A DNA stretch of 37,149 nucleotides, taken from IMG/VR virus record IMGVR_UViG_3300025673_000107, positions 1-37,149 of that record. One strand, 5' to 3'. The DNA is from a virus (lineage: Duplodnaviria > Caudoviricetes). This document shows positions 1-13,735 of the stretch, in pieces. Every line of letters begins with the position of its first letter. Position 1 is the stretch's first letter. The position numbers were made by a program, and so were the translations under genes. A model generated the notes under the pieces. It was not told the DNA's origin, made no database searches, and worked only from the letters and a program-made list of their open reading frames with translations.

Positions 1-1450
1 TAACTTTATCTTTACCGTAAATTAATTCTTCTGCAATACGACCTCCATATAATGATTGAAGTTGTGATTCTAATTTTTCTTTTGATGCGGAATAAGAATC
101 CTTTTCTGGTAGGAACATAGTAACCCCGAGAGCTCTACCTCTCGGCATAATAGATACCTTATAAACTGGATCATGAGTTTCGGTCAATCTACCTACAATG
201 GCATGACCAGCCTCATGATATGCTGTCATTCTCTTCTCATCCTCCCCCATTATCATGGTTTTCTTTTCCACCCCCATAATGAGTTTATCTTTTGCCCTTT
301 CTAAGTCTGCCATACAGACGTTTTCTTTATTCTCTTTTGCGGCAAAAAGAGCAGCTTCATTAATGAGATTTGCCAGTTCAGCACCACTGAATCCAGTAGT
401 ACCCTGTGCAATGTATTCAAGTTTAATATCATCGGATATTGGCACCCTTCGCATATGTACTTGAAGTATTTGACCACGACCCTTGACATCAGGGAGTCCA
501 ACATTAATTTCTCTGTCAAATCTTCCGGGTCTTAATAATGCCTTATCTAGAACATCTGCTCTATTGGTTGCACCGAGTACAATGATTCCATCCGAATCAT
601 CGAACCCATCCATTTCAACTAATAATTGGTTTAGGGTTTGTTCTCTCTCATCATTACCCCCACCATGACCCGCTCCACGCTGTCTTCCTACTGCATCAAT
701 TTCATCAATGAATATAATACATGGACTAGATTTTCTTGCTTCAGAGAACATATCTCGAACTCTAGAAGCACCAACACCCACAAACATTTCTACAAAATCA
801 GAACCGCTTATTGAAAAGAACGGAACATCTGCTTCACCGGCAATAGCACGAGCAAGTAAGGTTTTACCTGTGCCTGGTGGACCAACCATCAATGCACCCT
901 TCGGTATTTTTGCACCAAGTCTTACATATTTTGGTGGGTTTCTAAGAAAATCTACCATCTCAGAAACCTCATCAAGAGCTTCTTCTACCCCTGCGACATC
1001 AGAGAAAGTAACTTTCCCACTTGATTGTTCGAGTTTCTTAGCTTTATTCTTTCCTACAAATTTACCAGCACCACCGCCACCTTGTCGTTTCATCCACCAT
1101 ATCCATACCCCTATCAATAATAAAATAGGAAACCACGAAATGAATATGCTGAGGAAAAGAGAACCTTCCTTTGGTGGATTTGCAATGACATCCACACCAT
1201 TCTTGAGGAGATCATCTACCATGTGAGGATCATTGGGAGCATATGTTATAAATTTTCCACCGTCATAATATTCCCCAACAACGGTTTTATCATCTACTAC
1301 AACTTTTTTTACAACCTTATCATTGACTAAATCTATAAATTTAGCATATGATACTTCCGATCCTATCTGCCCCTTTTTAGAATTCCCAAGGAAAGAGATA
1401 ATAACTAATCCCATAATTAGCCAAATTATTAGTCTTTTCATAAATTGCAT
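1..1450 (-). CDS. ftsH: ATP-dependent zinc metalloprotease FtsH (3' end runs off the window; missing from the ORF track)
   Basis: Hand translation from ATG 1450 (alternative ATG 1441): [22 protein letters not shown] (TM1), [20 protein letters not shown] (TM2), Walker A GPPGTGKT, pore loop [15 protein letters not shown], Walker [32 protein letters not shown], zinc motif [17 protein letters not shown]. Confidence 0.97.
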
Positions 1451-1451
1451 C

Positions 1452-3842
1452 CTATAATTCTAATATTTCTGATTCTACGGAATGAACAACGTTGTTCATT
1501 GTCAAAATAGAATCGTAGTTAAGTGATAGCGAATCAATCCCCTGATTAACCAACCATGATGTTATTTCTGGGAAATCTGATGGTGCTTGCCCACAGATCC
1601 CAATATATTTACCATGCCTCTTGCATGATGTTATTGCCATTTCCATTAATTTGAGCACTGCTCCGTTCCTCTCGTCACATCCGTTAATATTAGACGAATC
1701 TCTATCAACCCCAAGAGTTAATTGAGTTAAGTCATTAGATCCTATAGAAAATCCATCACAGTATTCTAAGAATTCATCCGCCAATAATGCATTACTTGGA
1801 ACTTCGCACATGAATATAATTTTAATACCATGTTGACCAGATTTTATTCCGTTCTCCCCTAATAATTGTATTACATTTTTTGCTTCATTTACAGTTCTAA
1901 TAAAAGGAACCATAACTTGTATATTATTTAATCCATACTCTAGGATAACTTTTCTTATTGCAGAGCATTCCAACTCAAATGCAAGTTTAAATTCTGGGGA
2001 ATTGTATCTATATGCACCTCTAAATCCGAGCATAGGATTTTCTTCCTCTGGTTCATAGAGATCCCCGCCATAGAGGTGAGCATATTCATTAGTTTTAAAA
2101 TCGGATAATCTGAATATAACTGGTTTGGGATATACCGAAGCCGCAATGGTAGCAATACCATCTGCCAGTCTACTTCTATAAAATTCTGTTGGTCGTGAAT
2201 ACCCAATTGTTTTTTCCGTTATGTGATCATGCATCTCCTCAGATAATAGTGCATGATCTAGTATGGCGTTAGGGTGTATACCAATCCGAGAATTAATAAT
2301 AAATTCAAGTCTTGCAAGTCCAACACCATCATTAGGATACTTAGCTATTTTAAATGCCATATCTGGATTACCAAGATTAAGCATTAATTTTGTTTTTGTT
2401 TTCTGGTATGAAGAAAAGTCTATTTTCTCTGTGGTGTATGGTAGGAGTCCATCGTAAACATATCCTATTTCACCTTCAGCACAAGATATTGTTATCTCCT
2501 CATCATTTCCTATAACTGAGGTAGCATCATCACATCCCACCACGGCTGGTATACCAAGTTCTCTTGCTATAATTGCTGCGTGGCAAGTCCTACCTCCTCG
2601 ATTGGTAATAATACCAGAGGATTTTTTCATTATTGGTTCCCAATCAGGATCGGTTATATCAGTTACGAGTATATCCCCCTCATTGAATTGATTCATATCA
2701 GACACATCATTAATTATAGATGATTTTCCTGAACCAATTTTAGATCCAATGGGTTTACCTGTAGTAATTACAGAGGATGTTCGTTCTAATTTAAACACCT
2801 CATCAGAACAAGGAGAATCCACAGAATGAACAGTTTCTGGTCTAGATTGAACTATAAAGATTTCATTGGTAATACCGTCAATTGCCCACTCTATATCCAT
2901 GTGAGTCTTTTTACCATATTTCTTAGAATAATGGTCTTCAATGATTACTGCAGATTTAGCTAATGATATAACTTCCTCATCACTTAAACAAAATTCTTGC
3001 TGCAGGGATTTATCAACTTCAATATTATTCGTCCTATTAGACTCAGAATAAATCATTTTGACTAATTTGGTACCAAGCTGTCTTTGTATAATAGATTTAT
3101 ATCCATCCTTGAGAGTTGGTTTGAATACATAAAATTCATCTGGATTGACATTACCAGATACCACGTTCTCACCAAGTCCGTATGCACCGGTGATAAATAC
3201 CACATCATCAAATCCTGATTCGGTATCGAGAGTAAACATAACACCTGCGGTACCCCTATCAGATCGAACCATTTTCTGAATACCAATTGAAACTTTTACA
3301 TCCCTATGGGAATATCCATTACATATTCTATATGATATAATCCTGTCTGTAAATAATGAAGCGAATACGAGTTTACATGCATGTATAACATCAACCGCAC
3401 CAAATACATTGAGATATGTATCCAGTTGACCAGCAAATGAATTTGATAATGAATCTTCTGTAGTTGCGGAAGATCTGATAGCTACAGACCCACCAAGTTC
3501 ATGATATGCTTGAAGGATCTCGAATTCTAAACGCGGTGGCATCTCTCCATTAATAAACCATGACCTAATGGTTTTACCTATTTCTGATAATGAGTCTATA
3601 TCATCAATATCAACATTCTCTAATATATCTTCAATTTTATGTTCTAGTTGATTATGTTCAATAAAATCAGTATAACCATCTACCTTTATGGCAAATCCAT
3701 TCGGTACATTAATACCCGATTCAGTGAGTTCAGAATACATTTCCCCCAGTGAAGCATTTTTACCACCAACTATAGAAACATCTGATATACTTAATTCAGA
3801 ATATTCTCGAATATAAGATAAATTACAATCAAATGCAGGCAT
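1452..3842 (-). CDS. ppsA: Phosphoenolpyruvate synthase (pyruvate, water dikinase)
   Basis: [22 protein letters not shown], phospho-His motif [55 protein letters not shown]; full length at 796 aa. Confidence 0.97.
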
Positions 3843-3857
3843 TATATTCTCCGATTA

Positions 3858-4316
3858 TTACATACGAATTTCGAAATGTGGTGCGTCAATGAAAGGTCTT
3901 CGACCCTGATTTCTACGAAGATCTATATATGATGTCATTAGGGATTCCATTGGAGCATTCCATGCTCTGATATCGTTGAGGTGCCATGCTGCACCCCATC
4001 TAAGTGGTATACCGACTTCAATTGCAGATTCTTTCATAGCCTCTGCAATATCATCATAGACCTTTAGTTCCCAAGAAACCTGTGACCCAATATAAGCTAC
4101 AAGATCAACTGCTTTCCCCGTAAGGTGATTTGATTTCATAGTTTTTGATGCACCTTTATTAAAAAGTTCTTCTTGCCTAGCAAGAGACCGAACCCCCTCA
4201 GATACACCAAAATCAATTTTAGTTAATGTGATAGCTCTATGAACACACGATGCCAGCTGTTCATCAACGCCTTCTAATCTACCTAAACTTCTTGACGATA
4301 ATCTAAAATTTGACAT
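3858..4316 (-). CDS. M15-family (L-Ala-D-Glu type) peptidoglycan peptidase / endolysin
   Basis: FRLSSRSLGRLEGVD, EGVRSLARQ, zinc motif SNHLTGKAVD, RWGAAW and C-terminal FIDAPHFE, typical of T5-like phage endolysins. Confidence 0.88.
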   Translation of the reverse strand: MSNFRLSSRSLGRLEGVDEQLASCVHRAITLTKIDFGVSEGVRSLARQEELFNKGASKTMKSNHLTGKAVDLVAYIGSQVSWELKVYDDIAEAMKESAIEVGIPLRWGAAWHLNDIRAWNAPMESLMTSYIDLRRNQGRRPFIDAPHFEIRM

Positions 4317-4325
4317 AATATTCCT

Positions 4326-5603
4326 CTAAAATTGTTCCTCTTCGGTTGAGCCATCCATAGCAGTAGTAGATGATTTCCCACCTTGTATAGTATTGGTAAT
4401 TAAATCAAAATATCCAGCACCAACTTCCTCTTGATGTCTTGCAAATGTATATCCATCTTTAAGAGATGCGAATTCTGGTTCTTGAACTCCCTCAACATAA
4501 GCAGTCATACCCCTCTCAACATAATCCTTCGATAACTCAAACATAGAATGCCACATATCATGAATACCAGCAAGGGTAATGAATTGCCATTTAAATCCCA
4601 TCTCACCTAGGCGTTTCTGATAATGTGCTATGGTTTCATCATCTAAATTCTTTTTCCAATTGAATGATGGTGAACAGTTGTAAGCAAGCAACTTGCCAGG
4701 ATATTGCTGATGTATTGCAGTTGCAAATTTCTGTGCTTCGTCAAGATTAGGTACAGCAGTTTCACACCAGAGCATATCAGCATACTGTGCATATGCCAAT
4801 CCTCTTGAAATGGCTTGATCGATTCCAGATTTAACTCTATAGAATCCTTCCTCAGTACGCTCACCTGTAACAAATTCCTTATCACGAACATCTATATCGG
4901 AGGTTAATAGGGTTGCTGCATTAGCATCGGTTCTAGCTACGATAATAGTTGGTACACCCATAACATCTGATGCTAATCTTGCGGATACCAGTTTTTGGAT
5001 TGCTTCCTGAGTTGGAACCAACACTTTACCACCCATGTGACCACATTTTTTGGCAGATGATAATTGATCTTCGAGATGTATACCACTTACACCATTCTCG
5101 ATCATTGATTTGGTAAGTTCATAGGAATTAAGAACTCCACCAAACCCAGCCTCGGCATCAGCAATAATAGGAGCAAAATAATCTACTTCCTTCGATCCCT
5201 TTGCCCATTGAATTTCATCTGCTCGACGAAACGTATTATTGATACGCTTAACCATCTGTGGTACTGAATTATATGCGTAGAGCGATTGGTCTGGATACAT
5301 AGTTTCGCTGGAATTACCATCCGCTGCTACTTGCCATCCTGATAAATATATAACTTTAATTCCAGCCTTGACCTGTTGCATTGCCTGACCGGCAGTTATA
5401 GCCCCCATAGAATTAACATATCCATCTTCGTTAATTAAATCCCAAAGTTTTTCAGATCCCAGAGAAGCCATAGTATACTCTTCATCCATCGAACCTCTCA
5501 ATCTAATAACATCTTCAGCCGAATAGGGTCTGGAGATACCATTCCATCGTTCATTCTCTCTCCAATCCTTTTCTAAAGTTCTCACTCTACCCAAATTTTC
5601 CAT
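4326..5603 (-). CDS. aceA: Isocitrate lyase (short-type ICL)
   Basis: [30 protein letters not shown], catalytic loop [60 protein letters not shown]-terminal STEEEQF. Confidence 0.98.
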
Positions 5604-5630
5604 ATGTATTTTTTGACCTCGTAATTGTAA

Positions 5631-5735
5631 TTAATTTGCTAAATTTAATATTAACCATACTCCAACGAATATGATTAGTGGTATTGTCATTGTCATAACC
5701 CCCGCAATAAGGGATTTTTTAATCGCACTCTTCAT
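5631..5735 (-). CDS. Small single-pass membrane protein (34 aa)
   Basis: Hand translation MKSAIKKSLIAGVMTMTIPLIIFVGVWLILNLAN*; basic N-terminus then a hydrophobic helix; fills the gap upstream of aceA. Confidence 0.55.
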   Translation of the reverse strand: MKSAIKKSLIAGVMTMTIPLIIFVGVWLILNLAN

Positions 5736-5874
5736 TCTTTTTATTTTTCCTCTTTTCTATCTGTTCTTCTTTATTTTTCATTGAAAAGAAGATATTATCC
5801 CAATTATCTCTAAATTTTTTATTTGTTATTTTTGACTGAAGCTTATCCCCAGTTATATCATTCTTTGCCGTCAT
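5719..5874 (-). CDS. Small conserved phage hypothetical protein
   Basis: MTAKNDITGDKLQSK...FRDNWDNIF resembles a small protein family I recall from T4-like phages. ATG 5874 is preferred over 5910. Confidence 0.6.
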   Translation of the reverse strand: MTAKNDITGDKLQSKITNKKFRDNWDNIFFSMKNKEEQIEKRKNKKNEECD

Positions 5875-5938
5875 ACCCTTCCCGTTTATAATTCCATCAT
5901 GCAAATGCATTTCCCAATCTCATAATTATATATGTCAC

Positions 5939-6133
5939 CTATAAAACTCCCTTTAATATTGTAGCATTTCCTTCGATAACCTCAACGGTATTATCTTGAA
6001 TGAAGGTGTATTTCTCGTCCATTTTATAACCGCATTTCTTGTAATCACTCCAAGAAATACACTCGATTTTACCAGAAAGTTTACCATCCTCATTCATTAA
6101 AGGAACTGATAACATTCCAGATTTAGGGATCAT
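5939..6133 (-). CDS. Hypothetical protein
   Basis: 64-aa ORF with ATGA overlap to the upstream gene and a GAGGA ribosome-binding site. Confidence 0.6.
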   Translation of the reverse strand: MIPKSGMLSVPLMNEDGKLSGKIECISWSDYKKCGYKMDEKYTFIQDNTVEVIEGNATILKGVL

Positions 6134-6372
6134 ATTTCCTCAACCTTTCTTTTCAATTTATCACGCTTTCTTTTAAGAGATTTAATTTCCTGTTTTAATT
6201 TTTTCACTTCATCCAAATAATTATTACGATCCGATATGTCCCCGCACTTGGCCTCCATACGATTACCAATGCTCTGTAGTTCCTCTAGTAATCCCATAAC
6301 AATTGAAAAGTTTCGTGTTTTATAACAAGCTCGCATTTCATCTATCACGGTACAAAAATATCTATTTGTCAT
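6130..6372 (-). CDS. Hypothetical protein with C-terminal coiled coil
   Basis: 80 aa, strong AAGGAGG RBS, heptad-like Lys/Glu-rich C-terminus. Confidence 0.7.
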   Translation of the reverse strand: MTNRYFCTVIDEMRACYKTRNFSIVMGLLEELQSIGNRMEAKCGDISDRNNYLDEVKKLKQEIKSLKRKRDKLKRKVEEI

Positions 6373-6390
6373 GTAAATCCTCCTTTATAA

Positions 6391-8520
6391 TTAGGCTACC
6401 AATCTAGCAAACTCTTGAGCAATTAGCTTGTTCATTTTCTTATTCTTTTGGAACTTTTTGAAATCCCGTTTAATTGTTGTAAGTCTTTTTTTATCAATAA
6501 CATCACCCTTTGCTTCAGTTGAAAATTCTTCCTCCTCTGCATTGAGTCTCTTATCGTGAACTACGATATAATGATCATAACCAGCATTGTTGCTTGAGAC
6601 TGAATAACCACTTTTATCAACATCAATTCTTTTTGAAGTTAAGAAGAATCCAATCAAATTATATTTCTGACGAATTCTTTCGAATATTTTATTATTAATG
6701 ATCTTTGGCATGTAACTATAATAATCAGGATAAGGAATTTCTATATTGGGATGACCCTCAACAGAAACGATAAAGGTTTTAGCTTTAGCTGATCCAAATC
6801 TAGAAGTATTATCAGAGGAAGTAACTCTCACATCTTGTGCATCACCATCAGTTAAAAAGATAACATTGAGTTTATCAACTCTATTTTTTTTGAGAAAATC
6901 ATCAATCATAAGAAGAGAAACTGCCGAGGTTTCAACGAGCGGTGTACCTCCAAGTCTAAATGCAGGCTCTATCGCCCATCTATGACGGGACCATTTATTA
7001 TCATTATGATCATATGGTTTATGAGGAGCAGAAGTAATAACAGATGAAAACATAACTCTCTCAAACATTTTATTTAATTTGGGGGTTGACCATTTAGAGT
7101 CTCCGATCTTAACCAAATTAACTGCCCAATTGTGAGTATCATATTTAGATTTATTATCTTCTCCTCTCCAGGATCTATATTTTTCACTGTTAGTTGTAAA
7201 AGAATATAGTTCAAAAGGAATATTAATTCTTTTAGCAAACATCGATAATATAATCGATTGTTTAACAGTTTCGTGGAGTCTGATAGCCATAGAAGCTGAA
7301 AAATCAATGTACATAATGAGACCGTGATTTTTAGAATCTGGCATATTTAGAACGGTTTTAAAAATACGATCGTCTAATTTATATTTCCAGAGTTTATTAA
7401 CGTCAATTGAACCTGAAGTGGATTCTTTAATTTTTCTAGATTCCATTGCAGATTTACGAAGTTCAAATTGTTGAACCATCGCATTAACTGCTGGTTTAAT
7501 ATCCGAAATAAATTCTTTATATTCTGAGGAATATTCATTTCGAAGTCCTGTATATTCTTCGGAATAATCTTTCATAACATATTCTAAAGATTTTTCAAAA
7601 TCCTTCTCTGAATATAACCATTCTTCCTTTAATTGTTTTTTAGTAAATTTAATTTGGGTTATTTCGGAGTCAGAATGGGTTAATTTGCTTTCATTGTTTC
7701 TGAAATTTTGATCGGTAACAGAATCATAGAGATTGTTATCTCCGGTGAGAGCTTCATCTTCCGCTTCATAGTCATCGGGTGGGATATCATCATCTCTCTG
7801 TTGAACCATTTGATTTTCTTCAGAATCTTCTCCTTCTTCACTTTCTTCTGAATCCGAATCTTCTCCTTCTTCACTTTCTTCTGAATCCCCTTCTTCTGAA
7901 CCAGAATCTTCTCCTTCTTCATTTTCAGATTCTGAATCCTCTGAGTATTCCTCTTTTTTAGATTCCTCATCTTCTTTTGAGATGAAGTCCATTAACTCTC
8001 GAGAAACTGAAATAGTATCATCAAAAGTTTGAATTTCAAAAACCTTTGCCATCATAACAGATTCAGCGAAAGAAAATTCAAGGTCAATTGAATTATTCAA
8101 TTTAGCTTTAAGATTAAGTCTATCAAGGAAACTGAGTTTATTTGGATCGACATCTTTAATTCCGAAGAAGTTATCCGCCATAAGACGTTTGTAACCTCTA
8201 ACGAAATCATTAATTAATCCCGGATAAAATTCTCGAATCATTCGTTCAATACGAACATCTTCGACAATATTCAAAATAGAATGAGGAATATCAACAATTT
8301 TGGGAAATGCCTCTGAATCGTGAGAGAAAATATCGGGGGTATAAAGAGCATGACCAACCTCATGCCCAATAAAGAGGGGATAAGCGTCAGAATATTCTTC
8401 CTTCAATATAGGTAATCTAAGTATTCGGTTCGCTGGATCAAAGGAGGCGGTTTTGAAGTTTCCCTCAATTACCTCCAAATCCTCCCGAGCCATTAACTTA
8501 GAAAGTAACGATTTATTCAT
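6391..8520 (-). CDS. CobT-like protein: N-terminal HExxH metallopeptidase-like domain, acidic linker, C-terminal VWA domain
   Basis: TASFD...RILRLP, GHEVGHALYT, NIVEDVRIE, Glu/Asp/Ser-rich linker, MIDAS-like IDFSAS, LGGTPL, IFLTDG. This architecture is common in marine T4-like phages. Confidence 0.85.
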   Translation of the reverse strand: MNKSLLSKLMAREDLEVIEGNFKTASFDPANRILRLPILKEEYSDAYPLFIGHEVGHALYTPDIFSHDSEAFPKIVDIPHSILNIVEDVRIERMIREFYPGLINDFVRGYKRLMADNFFGIKDVDPNKLSFLDRLNLKAKLNNSIDLEFSFAESVMMAKVFEIQTFDDTISVSRELMDFISKEDEESKKEEYSEDSESENEEGEDSGSEEGDSEESEEGEDSDSEESEEGEDSEENQMVQQRDDDIPPDDYEAEDEALTGDNNLYDSVTDQNFRNNESKLTHSDSEITQIKFTKKQLKEEWLYSEKDFEKSLEYVMKDYSEEYTGLRNEYSSEYKEFISDIKPAVNAMVQQFELRKSAMESRKIKESTSGSIDVNKLWKYKLDDRIFKTVLNMPDSKNHGLIMYIDFSASMAIRLHETVKQSIILSMFAKRINIPFELYSFTTNSEKYRSWRGEDNKSKYDTHNWAVNLVKIGDSKWSTPKLNKMFERVMFSSVITSAPHKPYDHNDNKWSRHRWAIEPAFRLGGTPLVETSAVSLLMIDDFLKKNRVDKLNVIFLTDGDAQDVRVTSSDNTSRFGSAKAKTFIVSVEGHPNIEIPYPDYYSYMPKIINNKIFERIRQKYNLIGFFLTSKRIDVDKSGYSVSSNNAGYDHYIVVHDKRLNAEEEEFSTEAKGDVIDKKRLTTIKRDFKKFQKNKKMNKLIAQEFARLVA
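7823..7888. repeat. 33-bp perfect tandem duplication in the acidic linker of the CobT-like gene
   Basis: GAATCTTCTCCTTCTTCACTTTCTTCTGAATCC at 7823-7855 and 7856-7888, with a partial third copy near 7904. It encodes DSEESEEGEDS units. Confidence 0.9.
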
Positions 8521-8554
8521 AATATATATACACCTTTTATCAATTTATACACAT

Positions 8555-8584
8555 ATTATACCACAATAGTACAGAGAAGTAAAC
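8555..8584 (-). promoter_or_regulatory. T4-like early (sigma70) promoter upstream of the CobT-like gene
   Basis: Minus strand reads GTTTAC-ttctctgtactattgtgg-TATAAT with an extended TGTGG -10 and A-tracts upstream, matching the T4 early promoter consensus. Confidence 0.8.
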
Positions 8585-8611
8585 AATTATTTCAATTTAT
8601 TTTCATTTATT

Positions 8612-8767
8612 TCACCTTTGATGCTGTATTTTTGTCATACCCACTAATTTAAACCATCTTAGACAATGCGGACATCTAATTTTAGAGAGGGAATAAAATC
8701 TAACAAAAGATCCGGGTTTACCCTCATCACACGGACATTTAAACTCTGCTATATCAATTTCTTTCAT
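8612..8767 (-). CDS. Small zinc-ribbon-like protein (51 aa)
   Basis: Hand translation MKEIDIAEFKCPCDEGKPGSFVRFYSLSKIRCPHCLRWFKLVGMTKIQHQR*; CPC and CPHC motifs. Confidence 0.55.
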   Translation of the reverse strand: MKEIDIAEFKCPCDEGKPGSFVRFYSLSKIRCPHCLRWFKLVGMTKIQHQR

Positions 8768-9170
8768 TGCCAAGAGCTAACACTAGGTAATGAATAGCCT
8801 TGAGAAGATCCTTTTTATTTTTACCATCTTTTCTCCCGTATCGCATGAGATATTTAATAGTGGTATCAATACAAGAATCTGTCATAGACCCACGTGCCTT
8901 CCATACATCTAGGGTTTGAACCTCATTATTTTGGTTGGTGTAATGCTCAGAATATGTCGATTCAATATATTCTTTGATTTCTGTTAGTGTTGACAGCTCA
9001 GAATAATTATACTTAAACTTAGGGTCAGATCCATACATTCTCACGTATTCAGAATCTGTTTTAAAGTCTATTTCTGGTTTATACAGTTCATTCTCGACCC
9101 AATCATCTCTAACCCCTTTCCAATCAATCACTGTATCATCTGGGATGTTTAATTTATGATCTGAAGCCAT
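8754..9170 (-). CDS. DUF3310-like phage protein (family often annotated as nucleotide kinase)
   Basis: YIESTYSEHY...QTLD...IKYLMRYGRKDGKNKKDLLKAIHY pattern. ATG 9170 overlaps the upstream TAA (TAATG) and is preferred over 9194. Confidence 0.72.
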   Translation of the reverse strand: MASDHKLNIPDDTVIDWKGVRDDWVENELYKPEIDFKTDSEYVRMYGSDPKFKYNYSELSTLTEIKEYIESTYSEHYTNQNNEVQTLDVWKARGSMTDSCIDTTIKYLMRYGRKDGKNKKDLLKAIHYLVLALGNERN

Positions 9171-9307
9171 TATAATACCACATTCCTCACCCATTTAGCT
9201 GTGGGATGTCGTTTTTTAGTATAGGTTCCATGCCCAGTTTGTTTTGCTAGAGGTTTACCCCTAGCAGTCATTGCATTACTCTTGAATGGTTTATATCGTT
9301 TACTCAT
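9170..9307 (-). CDS. Small basic protein (45 aa)
   Basis: Hand translation MSKRYKPFKSNAMTARGKPLAKQTGHGTYTKKRHPTAKWVRNVVL*; GAGGTG RBS; exactly fills the gap between mcl and the DUF3310-like gene. Confidence 0.65.
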   Translation of the reverse strand: MSKRYKPFKSNAMTARGKPLAKQTGHGTYTKKRHPTAKWVRNVVL

Positions 9308-9315
9308 AATTCACC

Positions 9316-10278
9316 TCACTCTTCGTATTTGTTTGCTCTAGAATTAATAATATTAATTGTTTCTAATATATTCTTTGCCATTTTCTCTGATGCAACATCT
9401 ATCATTTTACCGTCAAGAGATGCAGCACCTTGCCCTGCTTTAGATGCTTTATATAATGCATCAAGTATTCTTTCTGCTGTGGTAACTTCTTCTTTCGATG
9501 GTGTAAATACTTCATTTGCAAGTGGTATTTGTGATGGATGAATTGCCCACTTACCAGTACATCCTAGAGCTGCGGCACGTTTAGCGGCAAGTACATATCC
9601 CTCTGTATCCTTAATATCACCGTATGGACCATCTACGGGTCTGAGACCGTATGCCCTACATGCAACCACCATTCTAGATAATGCGGAATGCCATTGATCG
9701 CCGGGATAATTCTCATTGAGTCCACCGATATTGGTGGTCCTTGCTCGAGTAGATGCAGCATAATCAGCAACACCAAAATGCATGGATTCTAATCTAGAAT
9801 TAACACTCTTCCTTGCAATCTCATCAACATTAGACATACCAAGAGCGGTTTCTATTAAGCACTCTAACTGAATGTGCTGATAGAGATCGTGTTTTATTTC
9901 GAGGGTATTAATAATACATTCAACCATGTATATATCATCAAATACACCTACCTTTGGTATTAATATAGTATCTAATTTTTCCCCGCAATGTTCAACCAAC
10001 TGTATTACATCATCTAACCAATAACCAGTTTCGAGTCCGTTGATACGAACACATATAGTTTTGTTTGCACCTTTCCAATCTAGATTATTAACACCATCGA
10101 TCACATTTAGACGAGCCTGTATCTTATCTGGTGTTGCAACAGAATCTTCCAAATCTAGGAATACAAAATCTGCATCGGAATTTAATGCTTTCTCAAACAT
10201 CTTAGGGTTAGATCCGGGTACTGTTAAATCACATCGCTGAAGTCTTGATATTGTTGGTTCGTATACTGTATAACTCAT
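9316..10278 (-). CDS. mcl: Malyl-CoA lyase (CitE/HpcH superfamily, serine-cycle MclA type)
   Basis: RLQRCDLTVPGSNPKMFEKA, FLDLEDSVA, VRINGLET, ILIPKVG, LIETALGM, HFGVADYAASTRARTTNIGG, PGDQWH, VACRAYGLRPVDGPYGD, GKWAIHPSQI, LDGKMID. Confidence 0.88.
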   Translation of the reverse strand: MSYTVYEPTISRLQRCDLTVPGSNPKMFEKALNSDADFVFLDLEDSVATPDKIQARLNVIDGVNNLDWKGANKTICVRINGLETGYWLDDVIQLVEHCGEKLDTILIPKVGVFDDIYMVECIINTLEIKHDLYQHIQLECLIETALGMSNVDEIARKSVNSRLESMHFGVADYAASTRARTTNIGGLNENYPGDQWHSALSRMVVACRAYGLRPVDGPYGDIKDTEGYVLAAKRAAALGCTGKWAIHPSQIPLANEVFTPSKEEVTTAERILDALYKASKAGQGAASLDGKMIDVASEKMAKNILETINIINSRANKYEE

Positions 10279-10286
10279 AATTTTCC

Positions 10287-10391
10287 TTATTCAATTATAT
10301 TAATAATAATGTGGATTAATTCTATAACTCCAAGAGATAATATGTATATTATCATTGCCGAAGCTATTAATACTGTTATAATATCCCTCAA
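10287..10391 (-). CDS. Possible small membrane peptide (34 aa)
   Basis: TTG start overlapping the prs stop (TTGA); MRDIITVLIASAMIIYILSLGVIELIHIIINIIE*; fills the prs-mcl gap. Confidence 0.4.
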   Translation of the reverse strand: MRDIITVLIASAMIIYILSLGVIELIHIIINIIE

Positions 10392-11335
10392 GATACTAAT
10401 GCCTTCAGCGATTCCCCATTATAAAATCTTCTTATAGTTTCAGATAATAAATCTTCGATACTAATAACTTCAATTTTATCTGGGAGATCTTTTACTTGCT
10501 CAATGGAATCAGATATATATACCTTCCCTATATTGGAATCCTTAATTCGCTGTATTGCCTTTCCCGAAAATACACCATGAATAGATATAGCATCAACAGA
10601 TTTAGATCCAGATTTTTCTAATGCCTCTACAGCACCGACCAGTGTACCCCCTCCGTCAATCATATCATCTACTATAACACATTTTTTGTCGGTAACATTC
10701 CCTATAACATTCATGACTTTTGATATACCAGGCTCTGGTCTTCTCTTATCAATAATAGCTATAGGAAGATCTAATAAATTGGAAAAATATCGAGCCCTAG
10801 AAGTACCACCCACATCCGATGAAACTACAACATCCCAGGTAGAAGGAGCAATGGCATCAACAATAGAATCCCTCATAGTTTTCAGAGCAGATATATGTTC
10901 ACATACCACATTGTTGTTAAAGAATCCCTGTGTCTGAAGTGAATGAAGATCCATGCAAATGACAGAATTTATACCAGTATGACAAAGCATATTAGCAATC
11001 ACTTTACCTGATATGGGACTTCGATTAGTTCTTCTATCCTGACGAGCGTAAGGATAATAAGGGAATATGACATTTATTTTGGAGGGGTTTGATCGACGAA
11101 CGGCATCAATAATTAACATAAGTTCAAGTATGTCATTATTCTTATTTGAGTCTGTAGAAAACCCAGCGATAAGGAAAATTTCTTCCCTTCGTATATTTTC
11201 TTTTATTTCAACGTATATTTCGGAATCAGGAAAATCCCGAATATGCATTTTAGCTAATCTTGCATTAAGTTTCTTTGCTACCTTTTCTGCTAGGATTCTA
11301 TTAGATCTGGTAGAAATCAATTTAAAGTTTTGCAT
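10388..11335 (-). CDS. prs: Ribose-phosphate pyrophosphokinase (PRPP synthase)
   Basis: PYYPYARQDR, MDLHSLQTQGFF, SSDVGG, IDKRR, PRPP-binding loop IVDDMIDGGGTL, HGVFSG. ATG 11335 is preferred to TTG 11362, which lies at the predicted transcription start. Confidence 0.95.
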   Translation of the reverse strand: MQNFKLISTRSNRILAEKVAKKLNARLAKMHIRDFPDSEIYVEIKENIRREEIFLIAGFSTDSNKNNDILELMLIIDAVRRSNPSKINVIFPYYPYARQDRRTNRSPISGKVIANMLCHTGINSVICMDLHSLQTQGFFNNNVVCEHISALKTMRDSIVDAIAPSTWDVVVSSDVGGTSRARYFSNLLDLPIAIIDKRRPEPGISKVMNVIGNVTDKKCVIVDDMIDGGGTLVGAVEALEKSGSKSVDAISIHGVFSGKAIQRIKDSNIGKVYISDSIEQVKDLPDKIEVISIEDLLSETIRRFYNGESLKALVS

Positions 11336-11369
11336 ATAGTCACATACCCTTGTCAGATTCAATAATTAC

Positions 11370-11400
11370 ATTATACTACATTTCCCCCAATATTGTAAAC
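11370..11400 (-). promoter_or_regulatory. T4-like early promoter upstream of prs-mcl
   Basis: Minus strand GTTTAC-aatattgggggaaatgtag-TATAAT immediately after the lipase stop codon. Confidence 0.7.
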
Positions 11401-12182
11401 TATTCTTGGGAATTAAATTTCTTACAGAGTTTGTGATATTTAACAGACGAGTGATCCCAGAATGAATCAATCTCGAAGTTTTTAAGTCCTACCAGCATAC
11501 CAATGAGATATTGTTTAAACATGTACCATCTACTGAAACCGTGTACATGATTGCCCTTTCTATCAAAATAATTTAGATGACCAATATGAGTATACCCAAT
11601 GAATTCGGGTGGCTGCCGAGTTACGATATCGTTGTTATTTCTAAATCTGTAGAATTTTGGACGAAACGCTTCACGAAATTCCGAATTACCTACTCTCGGT
11701 GATCCGTATGTATATCCAATTACATTTTCGTCACCGAGTCTTCCAGCTGCAATGGTTGCTAGGGCAGCACCAAGGGAATGACCAGTGAGAAATATATTTT
11801 TATTCTTTTCTAATTTACGATGAAACATACCTTCCATGGAAGAATAGCTTTCAAAATGATCAAGAAAATCATCCCAAATTAAATCAAGACCATCTTTAAA
11901 TCCTCGGTGAACTCTACCAGAAGATTCATCGGAGGCTTCTGTTTTACGAAATCTGATATCAGTTTTAATATCAGATAATTTTTTTGGTTCGGTGCCTCGA
12001 AATGCATAGATTAAATCGTTATCATCCCATAGGGCATAACATTGTGTAGATCCAGAATTAAAAAACTTAATGTCGAAATTATCAGAATATATATCAGAAA
12101 ATTCAGAAACTCCAAGATAAGCATTCATTGACAATTCGGAAAAGAATTCTGCATTCGATTTAGAAAACCCTGAATCTAGCAT
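11400..12182 (-). CDS. Class 3 lipase (alpha/beta hydrolase)
   Basis: AFRGTE, VHRGF, nucleophile motif LTGHSLGAALA, YTYGSPRVGN, NNNDIV, C-terminal DHS. Confidence 0.9.
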   Translation of the reverse strand: MLDSGFSKSNAEFFSELSMNAYLGVSEFSDIYSDNFDIKFFNSGSTQCYALWDDNDLIYAFRGTEPKKLSDIKTDIRFRKTEASDESSGRVHRGFKDGLDLIWDDFLDHFESYSSMEGMFHRKLEKNKNIFLTGHSLGAALATIAAGRLGDENVIGYTYGSPRVGNSEFREAFRPKFYRFRNNNDIVTRQPPEFIGYTHIGHLNYFDRKGNHVHGFSRWYMFKQYLIGMLVGLKNFEIDSFWDHSSVKYHKLCKKFNSQE

Positions 12183-12183
12183 A

Positions 12184-12375
12184 TTATTCCCCGCAGGTTA
12201 CTTTAATAGAATGCGGTGCAAGAGATTCATTTAGTCCTCTTCTAAGTGCATTTCTACCAGCTTCAGGAACAGAACAATATTTGTTCACAGCATGAGATGC
12301 GGTCAACTTAATTGTATCTATTGTAGAACATCCCGATATAAACATAATCGAACATATTATTATTACTTTTTTCAT
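12184..12375 (-). CDS. Small lipoprotein
   Basis: MKKVIIICSIMFISG|C signal peptide with lipobox; GGAG RBS; two further Cys residues. Confidence 0.75.
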   Translation of the reverse strand: MKKVIIICSIMFISGCSTIDTIKLTASHAVNKYCSVPEAGRNALRRGLNESLAPHSIKVTCGE

Positions 12376-12397
12376 AATTTACTCCAGTTGATAGTAA

Positions 12398-12419
12398 ATT
12401 GGGGTTTTCACACCCCAAT
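12398..12419 (-). terminator. Intergenic stem-loop, possible terminator or processing hairpin
   Basis: Minus strand ATTGGGGT-GTGAAA-ACCCCAAT (8-bp stem) followed by only a short T run. Confidence 0.5.
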
Positions 12420-12435
12420 CAAGAGATATAGTTTC

Positions 12436-12762
12436 CTATTTAAAATTATATCTATACTCTACAGCTACATTTTCAATATGTTGATCAGTGCCTTGAAATA
12501 CGTCCCAAGGACCAGACATATTGAAACGGTTATACATTACTCCAACCTCATGAACTTTTGCAGTGCCAATATAGGCATTGGTAAATAGTCTTAGGGAATT
12601 GGAATTTTGAGAACCAGACCAAAAATCATTCATTGCATCCGCATCTTGTGTCCACCGAAACCCAGCATCCTTCATCTGAATGTCGAAAGCATCACCAGAC
12701 ATTACTGCGCTGGATGTAGTTAAAGCAAACATTGCTAAAATCAAAACTAATATATTTTTCAT
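12436..12762 (-). CDS. Exported protein with beta-strand pattern and aromatic C-terminus (possible small outer-membrane protein)
   Basis: Signal peptide MKNILVLILAMFALTTSSA; alternating strands LRLFTNAYIG, EVGVMYNRF, VAVEYRYNFK. Confidence 0.65.
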   Translation of the reverse strand: MKNILVLILAMFALTTSSAVMSGDAFDIQMKDAGFRWTQDADAMNDFWSGSQNSNSLRLFTNAYIGTAKVHEVGVMYNRFNMSGPWDVFQGTDQHIENVAVEYRYNFK

Positions 12763-12789
12763 TTTCTACCTTTATTATTAAACAACAAA

Positions 12790-13016
12790 ATTGATCCGTT
12801 CTGTTGCCAAGTGGATCAGACTCCGCGTTTTAACCTAGAGGCTAAGCAGCAAGTGCAAAATTATCTTCTGCGTTTATATTTTCGATTTTTACATCTTTCT
12901 TGATGGACAGTCAATATATCGTTAACACATTGTCGAAACTGTTCTCTCCCATTGGTGGAAGAGGCGGGAATCGCACCCGCGTCCAACATATCTCAAATAT
13001 ACATCATACTGTCATA
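12790..13016 (-). ncRNA. ssrA: Circularly permuted (two-piece) tmRNA; tag peptide (A)AEDNFALAA
   Basis: Minus strand: acceptor piece GACAGT...GGAC-GCGGG-TGCGATT-CCCGC-CTCTTCC-ACCA (ends 12953), then AT, then 5' end GGGAGAG-AACAGTTTCGAC (G1 = 12950). The 7-bp acceptor stem has G3.U70. ACTGTC/GACAGT pairs the two pieces. Resume context ATAAAC-GCA; tag ORF 12871-12842 ends LAA-TAG. A 3' hairpin TGATCC-ACTTGGCAACAGAAC-GGATCA follows. Confidence 0.93.
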
Positions 13017-13022
13017 TTCTCT

Positions 13023-13052
13023 ATTATATATAAAAATTTCTCAATTGTAAAC
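13023..13052 (-). promoter_or_regulatory. T4-like early promoter for the tmRNA
   Basis: Minus strand GTTTAC-aattgagaaatttttata-TATAAT. It predicts a start near 13016, just before the GACAGT that opens the acceptor piece. Confidence 0.75.
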
Positions 13053-13217
13053 TTTATCCCATTTATTTATAGGACATGTAGATGATTTTAATCTGATTTT
13101 ACCTTCTATGATACACCCGCATTTAGAACACAGATCAACTCCAACGTTCTTTTTAAACTCACAGATCGAACACATCTCTCTTCTCAATGAGACAAATTCC
13201 GATTTTTCTGTATTCAT
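13041..13217 (-). CDS. Small Cys-rich protein (DUF6171-like, 58 aa)
   Basis: Hand translation MNTEKSEFVSLRREMCSICEFKKNVGVDLCSKCGCIIEGKIRLKSSTCPINKWDKVYN*; R..CxxC...CxxCGC...K...CPxxKW pattern; ATGA overlap with the upstream gene. Confidence 0.8.
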   Translation of the reverse strand: MNTEKSEFVSLRREMCSICEFKKNVGVDLCSKCGCIIEGKIRLKSSTCPINKWDKVYN

Positions 13218-13735
13218 GATGATGAATTTGATGCTTGTCGTTCCTTCTCTGCTATTTCTGCCGCTTCCGCTGCTTTTTCTAGATTTTCCGGATCAATATT
13301 CTCTGTAGAATGTTCTGCATTACCAATCGATTGTTCTGGTTCTTCCTGAATGTTTGGTGGCTCTTCTCTTCTAGGGGGTTTTTGTTCCGGTGGAAAAGAC
13401 CGATTGAGTTTAAGTCCGGTTTTTTGTGGCGAAGATCCCTGTATAGGGATATCTAGATATGACCATGCAGCGTTAACACACCCTACTCCGGAAAATGTCG
13501 CCTCGACCTTTAAATCCTTTATATCTATTATTTTAATTTCCGGGGTCGTCATCGGTCTAAATAGTTCAACCCACATAGAATGCTCCACATCGAGAATATT
13601 TACTATAATGAATCTATTTTCTTCTTTTGGGAACGCCCGAAGTTTTTTAAATTTGGCTAAATTCCGAAGTTCTTTTTCACATGGGTCACATTTGTGGGAT
13701 GTGAATAGTATTATGTATCGTTCAATCATTGTCAT
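13214..13735 (-). CDS. Thioredoxin-like fold protein with CxxC and a disordered Pro/Glu-rich tail
   Basis: IILFTSHKCDPC followed by a helix, IIVNI strand, cis-Pro-like TTPEIKII, ATFSG. Confidence 0.65.
   Translation of the reverse strand: MTMIERYIILFTSHKCDPCEKELRNLAKFKKLRAFPKEENRFIIVNILDVEHSMWVELFRPMTTPEIKIIDIKDLKVEATFSGVGCVNAAWSYLDIPIQGSSPQKTGLKLNRSFPPEQKPPRREEPPNIQEEPEQSIGNAEHSTENIDPENLEKAAEAAEIAEKERQASNSSS

Follow-up and report, generated by a model that had tools for sequence, protein, structure and literature searches.

The viral record IMGVR_UViG_3300025673_000107 (Duplodnaviria; Caudoviricetes), whose entire 37,149 bases we analysed and refer to here as the window, carries four genes for enzymes of central carbon metabolism, namely isocitrate lyase (ICL, encoded by aceA), malyl-CoA lyase (Mcl, encoded by mcl), phosphoenolpyruvate (PEP) synthase (PpsA) and ribose-phosphate pyrophosphokinase (Prs), the enzyme leading to phosphoribosyl pyrophosphate (PRPP). 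We propose, with a probability of roughly 0.55, that the phage lineage to which this record belongs converts host lipid, through ICL and an Mcl working in the condensing direction, into four-carbon compounds, PEP and PRPP for phage DNA. The novelty lies in the proposed use of Mcl in place of malate synthase and in the beta-oxidation genes upstream, on what is already a known theme of phage glyoxylate shunts. The genes and their catalytic residues, the selection acting on them and their co-occurrence in related phages could be observed directly. The called genes of the window all lie on the minus strand, and the four enzyme genes are the following:

1452..3842, minus strand: ppsA, PEP synthase (pyruvate, water dikinase), 796 aa; NF005057, TIGR01418, PDB 2OLS
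4326..5603, minus strand: aceA, isocitrate lyase, 425 aa; NF011645, PDB 1IGW (E 2.5e-194)
9316..10278, minus strand: mcl, malyl-CoA lyase of the serine-cycle (M. extorquens) type, 320 aa; PDB 5UGR, 4L9Y
10388..11335, minus strand: prs, ribose-phosphate pyrophosphokinase, starting at an ATG; NF002320, phrog_619, PDB 7XMU (E 9.8e-65)

A preliminary description of this DNA had reported four full-length enzymes with intact motifs, and both profile scores and residue alignments confirm it. PpsA scores 1107 bits with NF005057 (cut-off 598) and 1072 with TIGR01418 (cut-off 740), has the three-domain layout PF01326, PF00391 and PF02896, and aligns with 2OLS (E 6.3e-271) such that its phosphohistidine is H421; with 130 bits against the 843 required for pyruvate phosphate dikinase (PPDK), it is neither a PPDK nor an enzyme I of the phosphotransferase system. 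AceA reaches 755 bits with NF011645 (cut-off 562) and 101 with the PrpB model (cut-off 354), so it is not PrpB, and its KKCGH loop is found at residues 185-189. Prs passes NF002320 (338 bits against 297), has both domains (PF13793 and PF14572) and, when aligned to 7XMU, the PRPP-binding loop; an in-frame TTG lies upstream of its ATG, at 11362, and the prs gene of the close relative L308 begins at the equivalent of the ATG. The CitE-family protein that we call Mcl falls below every NCBIfam cut-off, and its closest solved structures are the malyl-CoA lyases 5UGR (346 bits, E 1.7e-102) and 4L9Y (288 bits, E 9.7e-85), compared with at most 114 bits (E 1e-31 or weaker) for CitE-like proteins and 38.5 bits for HaloMS. 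Residues E44, D45, R78, E143, D172 and D294 align with the active-site residues of 4L9Y. The catalytic set described for MCLR comprises E44, D45, R76, E141, D168 and the lid residue D299, and in the Mcl2 thioesterase group a Glu replaces the lid Asp (PMC3832036). The window protein lacks this thioesterase signature, and because its Asp294 sits where Mcl2 has Glu, we assign it, on its residues, as a malyl-CoA lyase and not a thioesterase of the Mcl2 type.

The four enzymes are genuine phage genes under purifying selection. The ratio of nonsynonymous to synonymous substitution rates ranged from 0.041 to 0.109 in 16 of 16 pairwise comparisons (ppsA 0.055-0.109; aceA 0.041-0.096; mcl 0.073-0.079; prs 0.067-0.089). 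Their GC content at third codon positions (GC3) is 0.23-0.28, like that of the endolysin and tail-fibre genes (0.24-0.25), compared with 0.46-0.60 for the aceA and mcl genes of candidate hosts. L308 matches window positions 1-13018 at 92-94% nucleotide identity with an identical gene order, its aceA and endolysin each being 99% identical to those of the window. In addition, contigs from two metagenome runs of other studies, one from sediment (X2) and one marine (X4, a strain at 90-95%), span ftsH-ppsA, ppsA-endolysin, ppsA-endolysin-aceA, vWA-DUF3310-mcl and mcl-prs-lipase, in part as far as the tmRNA. X3 and X1, the run from which the window may come, carry a sediment label like X2. Since contigs from other studies bridge the junctions, GC3 is phage-like and L308 has the same order, the window is no host-phage chimera, which the preliminary description had named as a way in which it could be wrong.

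An IMG/VR search returned 78 loci for aceA (13 of them at 86-90% identity), 47 for ppsA (8 at 85-91%), 10 for prs and 4 for mcl (all at 88-92%); other viral contigs also hold PpsA, many of them labelled as giant viruses. The lineage records are without exception fragments, with a CheckV completeness of 64% at best; three of them (G001, G002 and G161) jointly cover the head, replication, baseplate and tail regions, no single record being complete. Over 21 kb, L308 reads fadA-fadB...lipase-prs-mcl-DUF3310-vWA-aceA-endolysin-ppsA-ftsH-thioesterase. Its fadA-fadB pair lies about 7-10 kb upstream of mcl, and a hotdog acyl-CoA thioesterase directly follows ftsH, just beyond what would be the left end of the window; the preliminary description had suggested looking for a thioesterase as a partner of Mcl. 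In every locus that is long enough, the thioesterase comes next after ftsH, also where the two genes are surrounded by head genes (L289, L290). A fadE fragment is added by L292, which is 97% identical to L297 over their overlap, and no contig joined the right end of the window to fadAB.

In G001, a 115-kb relative, the four genes are scattered among T4 core genes across about 70 kb. G001 and G002 have the core of a T4-like myovirus (gp23, gp20 portal, terminase, sheath, baseplate, gp43/gp41/gp61), and their enzyme genes sit among gp43, gp41, gp61, gp32, gp23, terminase and baseplate genes; the T4-like genes of the window itself are accessory and tail-fibre genes only, the core being known from these relatives. 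Besides AceA, Mcl, PpsA and Prs, G001 encodes FadE (NF007000, 911 bits against 600), a thiolase (NF006030, 606 against 593) and a FadB/J-like protein that is below the equivalog cut-offs, yet has all four Pfam domains. Its further lipid genes are a lipase, an alpha/beta hydrolase, an acyltransferase-hydrolase fusion and a hotdog acyl-CoA thioesterase (PF03061), and it also encodes malate dehydrogenase (Mdh; NF003916, 418 against 271), alanine dehydrogenase (Ald; TIGR00518, 393 against 392), a thiamine pyrophosphate (TPP) decarboxylase, PyrD, a PurN-like protein, PanD, Ppa, NrdAB, ThyX, Dut and DnaK/J. A third type of gene order has aceA-mcl-fadE consecutively, in 5 of 29 tabulated lineage records (L082, L083, L307, L327, L330). 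Of these 29, some of which are not independent of one another, 10 have aceA and mcl on one contig, with each of the three gene orders represented, and 4 have all four enzyme genes together. We also searched 50 viral records, made up of 10 from the lineage and 40 of the other 65 aceA loci, for which longer contigs were chosen; mcl was found in 4/10 lineage records against 0/40 of the others, with the same counts for fadB. The four genes are therefore part of a gene set found across a lineage of marine T4-like phages and not a fixed cassette or physical module, since their order differs in three types of phage. The preliminary description had proposed that the phage installs a pathway rather than isolated genes; the set does look like a pathway, and it is the physical module that fell away.

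Several lineage loci carry further genes that touch on this set. L223 4367-12063 (61-69 kb of G001) holds panD with a C-terminal extension, pyrD, inorganic pyrophosphatase, an FTR1 iron permease, prs and a TPP-dependent decarboxylase. The acyltransferase and alpha/beta-hydrolase fusion, a protein of 760 aa at L224 13062-15344, occurs in about 8 lineage loci and is possibly a lipid remodelling enzyme. Some strains have a beta-eliminating lyase (PF01212; L227 4697-6055, L235 9992-11350, L216 15765-17123), which we take to be tryptophanase/tyrosine phenol-lyase-like and which is a possible further source of pyruvate beside alanine dehydrogenase. Formaldehyde-activating enzyme (Fae) is found in related phages (L211 491-1090, L217 8894-9490, L396-L401) that share lipase-prs-DUF3310 with the window; in 4 of 7 loci, fae occupies the slot between prs and DUF3310 that is taken by mcl here.

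The genes that could not be found also shape the reading. In agreement with the preliminary description, none of the 31 open reading frames (ORFs) of the window is a malate synthase, and tblastn with malate synthase G found none there. No record among the 50 viral ones had a malate synthase above the PF01274 cut-off (0/50, including 0/10 of the lineage), so that a classical glyoxylate shunt of aceA with aceB or glcB is not seen in the lineage fragments. Queries for sga, mtkA, mtkB, hprA, ppc, mtdA, icd and aceK had zero matches in 55 lineage loci (glyA was not among the queries), and the serine-cycle module of sga, mtkAB, hprA and ppc with mcl is likewise absent from these loci; PmoC, PmoA, malate synthase G, MtkA, Sga and Icd had zero matches in an overlapping set of 100 loci in which the positive controls worked. 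In three overlapping scans of the phage ORFs, which took in 54, 44 and 80 proteins from 178 clusters of 100 aa or more, acyl-CoA synthetase, electron-transfer flavoprotein (ETF), citrate synthase, aconitase, malic enzyme and PckA did not appear. The C1 units that the preliminary description had named as an input are thus not borne out, as the relatives show beta-oxidation (lipases, fadE, fadB, fadA) and no serine-cycle or pmoC matches.

Sequence comparisons point to a C1-oxidising gammaproteobacterium of the order Methylococcales as the probable host. A methanotroph or methylotroph is likely because the nearest AceA and FadB proteins are found in pmoCAB-bearing Methylococcales and because related phages carry Fae. 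The nearest named cellular Mcl and FadB proteins are mostly from Methylococcales; aceA was present in 12 of 121 sampled genomes of this order (that of G010), and in 8 of them AceA is 74-75% identical to the phage protein, the highest cellular identity seen. The same 8 genomes are among the best FadB matches (55-57%). All 5 of the 5 candidate-host genomes tested have AmoC/PmoC-family genes, with the C-A-B order in three of the loci, and mcl (61-63%), which lies beside mtkA in all four loci with readable ORFs; 4/5 have ppsA. In a quick AceA tree of 58 rows, 9 lineage rows (SH-aLRT 100) group with the candidate-host genomes (93), apart from 29 other phage AceAs; the tree holds at least 2 further phage aceA clades. 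Five genomes of the order (G267, G275, G288, G298, G303; L408-L415, L420-L456) combine pmoCAB, aceA, malate synthase G, mcl-mtk and beta-oxidation, with up to 5 AmoC-family matches, and are possibly facultative or alkane-using methanotrophs.

Other leads on the host were less useful. The permuted tmRNA was uninformative as a marker, scoring above the cut-off in 1 of 151 genomes of a class sample and in 0 of 8 candidate hosts. The family of G009, streamlined low-GC gammaproteobacteria, has an AceA merely 68-70% identical to that of the phage and is kept as a weaker candidate: aceA is found in 15/17 of its genomes together with a serine-cycle cluster, malate synthase and fadB each in 0/17, and ppsA and fadE each in 0/3 members tested. 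This marine family (L153, L156-L158, L161, L238, L375-L383), with genomes of about 1.1 Mb in which Fae is present and malate synthase was not found, is a natural icl-type serine-cycle lineage. The order of G007 has fadB in 35/41 genomes and malate synthase in 0/41, but with a FadB identity of at most 49%, and was set aside. One phage fragment with hydrolase-aceA-mcl-fadE, L083 (G006:C92), was binned in a gammaproteobacterial metagenome-assembled genome (MAG), where it could mislead metabolic reconstructions.

In the pathway that we propose, phage lipases would free fatty acids, which the acyl-CoA synthetase and ETF of the host, together with phage FadE, FadB and FadA, would convert to acetyl-CoA. 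Host citrate synthase and aconitase would supply the phage ICL, which would form succinate and glyoxylate and thereby bypass the CO2-losing steps, and phage Mcl would join glyoxylate to a second acetyl-CoA to give malyl-CoA. Malate could then be released either by a reversible host malate thiokinase, which would also give ATP, or by a phage thioesterase; the hotdog thioesterase of the lineage and the mtkA found beside mcl in candidate hosts may be the enzymes concerned. Host enzymes would take malate to pyruvate, to which amino acids would add through Ald, and PpsA would convert pyruvate to PEP, from which gluconeogenesis and Prs would lead to PRPP. What enters this scheme by inference is the direction in which Mcl works, the enzyme that releases malate, the source of the lipid, the identity of the host and the expression of the genes. 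There are precedents for the central step: Mcl is reversible and forms malyl-CoA in R. sphaeroides (PMC3832036), and, in evolved Methylomonas, Mcl with Mtk was proposed, though not shown, to take the place of a defective malate synthase (PMC11533326). A bolder version, which we put forward tentatively, is that the phage digests host membranes, with FtsH and amino-acid lyases and dehydrogenases yielding pyruvate, lipases and beta-oxidation yielding acetyl-CoA, and ICL-Mcl, PpsA and Prs leading on to nucleotides, Mcl standing in for malate synthase.

A number of observations weigh against the conversion of lipid through a condensing Mcl or against the host that goes with it. Sequence does not tell in which direction Mcl works, and the nearest cellular Mcls adjoin mtkAB, often in sga-mcl-mtkAB-hprA clusters, where Mcl cleaves. 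The phage thioesterase is of a general YciA/hotdog type and, in the records where it was seen, comes after ftsH and does not adjoin mcl; fadE, fadA and fadB lie outside the window itself, and every lineage record is fragmentary. Malate synthase G is present in 4 of the 5 candidate-host genomes tested, and Mcl would therefore not be needed there as a substitute. As regards descent, the AceA grouping with the candidate hosts is unstarred in spite of its support of 93, and in a quick Mcl tree (109 rows, with most Pelagibacter rows left out and 27 of 120 database matches offered) the phage proteins form one clade of 21 rows, the branch is long (0.78 changes per column), and no donor emerges. Higher identities (65-67%) are shown by Methylococcales Mcls that do not belong to the candidate clade, and the GC content of the candidate hosts is far above that of the phage.

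Some of these points are better accommodated by a route from glyoxylate to glycine, which we consider possible though doubtful. ICL and Mcl would both yield glyoxylate, Mcl by cleaving malyl-CoA made by host Mtk, and host Sga would carry it to glycine and serine, from which purine rings and C1 units would be supplied, with beta-oxidation serving mainly for ATP and NADH. The malate synthase G of the candidate host keeps this possibility alive, as do the serine-cycle type of the phage Mcl, whose closest cellular relatives have mtkAB and sga as neighbours, the prs, purN-like and thyX genes of the lineage, and the Fae of related phages with its place in the mcl slot; against this, sga, mtkA, mtkB, hprA, ppc and mtdA went unmatched in the 55 loci, and MtkA and Sga in the 100 with working controls. 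Furthermore, beta-oxidation would be expected to raise acetyl-CoA and so to favour condensation, and one type of phage has aceA-mcl-fadE in a row. It is rather unlikely that the genes are unconnected auxiliary functions which accumulated at insertion hot spots, every one relieving its own bottleneck without a joint pathway. The three differing gene orders would suit such a history, as would the prs-DUF3310 slot, which holds mcl, fae or neither across phages, and the other aceA-bearing phage records searched, in which mcl, fadB and malate synthase were all absent (40/40, 2 of them at least 90% complete); likewise, 76 of 98 huge phages with ICL were reported to lack malate synthase (bioRxiv 10.1101/2025.02.27.640493). 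Nevertheless, of the 50 records only those of this lineage yielded mcl and fadB, aceA and mcl occur on one contig in every type of gene order, and the enzymes link into one route with few gaps.

We regard as very improbable a different reaction for the CitE-family protein, such as the formation of beta-methylmalyl-CoA from propionyl-CoA (from odd or branched fatty acids) or the cleavage of citramalyl-CoA. Malyl-CoA lyases are promiscuous (PMC3832036), and the failure of the protein to pass any NCBIfam cut-off and its long branch would leave room for this; however, its best structural relative is the M. extorquens enzyme, and no family of the mesaconyl-CoA or ethylmalonyl-CoA pathways was seen among the lineage ORFs scanned, which were part of the clusters. 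Contamination or a host-phage chimera, for which one could cite the metagenomic nature of the contig and the binning of L083, is extremely improbable, given the bridging contigs, the order shared by L308 and L298, the phage-like GC3, the separate cellular aceA (at 69%) in the MAG that holds L083, and the location of the enzyme genes among T4 core genes in G001 and G002.

The preliminary description had noticed clearly viral genes interleaved with the enzymes, and the endolysin, the T4-like von Willebrand factor A (vWA)/peptidase gene and DUF3310 do lie between them. The other genes of the block are given here together with two predicted promoters and a transfer-messenger RNA (tmRNA) gene:

2..1450, minus strand: ftsH, membrane-bound AAA+ protease, truncated by the contig end (TIGR01241, 696 bits against a cut-off of 600)
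3858..4316, minus strand: M15-type endolysin, viral, between ppsA and aceA (phrog_465, E 2e-51; PF13539)
6391..8520, minus strand: T4-like vWA/peptidase gene, viral, between the enzymes (phrog_459, E 3.8e-140)
8555..8583, minus strand: sigma-70-like promoter upstream of the vWA gene, 10/12 consensus, extended -10 TG
8754..9194, minus strand: DUF3310 phage protein (PF11753; phrog_480)
11370..11399, minus strand: sigma-70-like promoter upstream of prs-mcl, 11/12 consensus, among the two best in 1-13500
11400..12182, minus strand: class 3 lipase (PF01764, E 1.3e-23)
12751..13045, minus strand: permuted tmRNA gene in two pieces, heading the block (ARAGORN; RF04321, 105 bits against 47)

The class 3 lipase, which is linked with prs in most lineage records of the co-occurrence table, is the likely entry point for lipid carbon. 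FtsH is 63-68% identical to five gammaproteobacterial FtsHs, and a relative has its copy at L221 7224-9035. The permuted tmRNA has a standard-looking tag peptide (beta_tmRNA, 86.7 against 84) and is also present in L308 (7110-7404), L297, L170 and L211; ARAGORN found none in the corresponding stretches of G001 and G002. The rest of the window (13214-37149, minus strand) is a 24-kb tail-fibre and surface-modification region with M10 peptidase fusions, CBM5/12 repeats, PAAR, a carbamoyltransferase, a GT9-like protein, a 2-oxoglutarate oxygenase and a halogenase, which is missing from run X4 and has about 4 kb in its place in L308.

The best-scoring sigma-70-like promoters precede prs, the vWA gene and the tmRNA, a suggestive placement, and the one at 8555..8583 would drive the run from vWA through aceA-endolysin-ppsA-ftsH. 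Their number is at chance level (65 against 59.3 expected), and so is that of an octamer that we take to be the late-type motif (7 against 7.6); all 7 octamers are on the coding strand, at 13064 or beyond. Thus, although the counts are at chance, the placement of promoters and octamers would be consistent with expression of the block in the early or middle phase. The RNA-library contigs X23 and X24, both of one sample, give thin and even coverage of the block that extends to the stretches between genes, so that transcription was not seen in them, and contig X10 is probably DNA and not RNA.

Parts of this gene set have been described in phages before. A phage aceBA pair is known from TARA_ERS478052_N000008 (Nishimura et al. 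2017, PMC5332604), huge phages have yielded 98 ICL and 22 malate synthase genes (bioRxiv 10.1101/2025.02.27.640493), aceAB was reported in viromes (PMC4053976), PRPP synthesis is a target of auxiliary metabolic genes (AMGs; PMC11360552), and viral fae and other methane-metabolism genes have been published (PMC10904782); phage prs is itself a known family, phrog_619. The term "malyl" is absent from the main text of the huge-phage preprint, mcl and malyl are absent from the main text and 5 supplement files of PMC10904782, and malyl-CoA lyase, isocitrate lyase and fatty acid are absent from the main text of the pmoC-phage paper (PMC7674155). In INPHARED, we found no close phage mcl or ppsA, the matches being mostly host-like contigs under phage names, and one 156-kb phage with aceA at 53%. 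We found no description in the literature searched of a phage mcl, a phage ppsA or a set joining beta-oxidation with the glyoxylate enzymes, although AMG tables may list such genes singly. Hence, of the suggestion in the preliminary description that the combination was undescribed in phages, aceA and prs must be taken out as already published, whereas mcl and the whole set are unusual. Three phages of 236-337 kb in our searches (G166, G167 and G168; L015, L016, L026) carry aceA, with malate synthase, mcl and fadB not found.

Like the phage aceBA systems, the present case is a T4-like or large phage with an isocitrate lyase proposed to save acetyl-CoA carbon; it differs in that the partner is Mcl, malate synthase was not found, aceA stands apart in the tree, and beta-oxidation, PpsA and Prs occur in the same genomes. 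E. coli grows on fatty acids with FadE, FadB/FadA or FadJ/FadI, the glyoxylate shunt and PpsA-dependent gluconeogenesis. The proposed route from fatty acid to PEP and sugars would be the same, except that it is phage-encoded and scattered among T4 genes, with FadD, ETF and the tricarboxylic acid cycle steps not seen in the scanned ORFs. From the methylotroph cluster sga-mcl-mtkAB-hprA-ppc (M. extorquens MCL, 5UGR), the phage has the same Mcl subfamily and, as in the icl+ variant of the serine cycle, ICL and Mcl would meet in one cell; however, it took mcl alone, and mtkAB, sga, hprA and ppc are unmatched in the lineage loci. R. sphaeroides offers an Mcl that condenses and a separate step of malate release (Mcl1 and Mcl2; PMC3832036; Erb et al. 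2010 via PMC11533326), but it does so without ICL, using the ethylmalonyl-CoA pathway instead, and its thioesterase is a CitE-family paralogue, while the putative phage counterpart has the hotdog fold. The pmoC- and fae-phages (PMC7674155, PMC10904782) are also large phages of probable methanotrophs, and fae occurs in related phages here, but pmoC is unmatched in the 100 loci of this lineage.

Phage metabolic genes are mostly single enzymes; this lineage has nearly all of a route that leads from lipid to the precursors of nucleotides, and the second half of its glyoxylate shunt is non-standard. It provides a natural and directly testable case of Mcl as part of a malate synthase beside ICL. If the conversion of lipid through ICL and a condensing Mcl is correct, infection would recycle host lipid into virions rather than releasing it, in cells that are likely to oxidise methane, and this would bear on the flow of methane-derived carbon in marine water and sediment. 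If the more tentative digestion of host membranes were also true, a whole catabolic-to-biosynthetic route would be contained within one phage genome of methane oxidisers.

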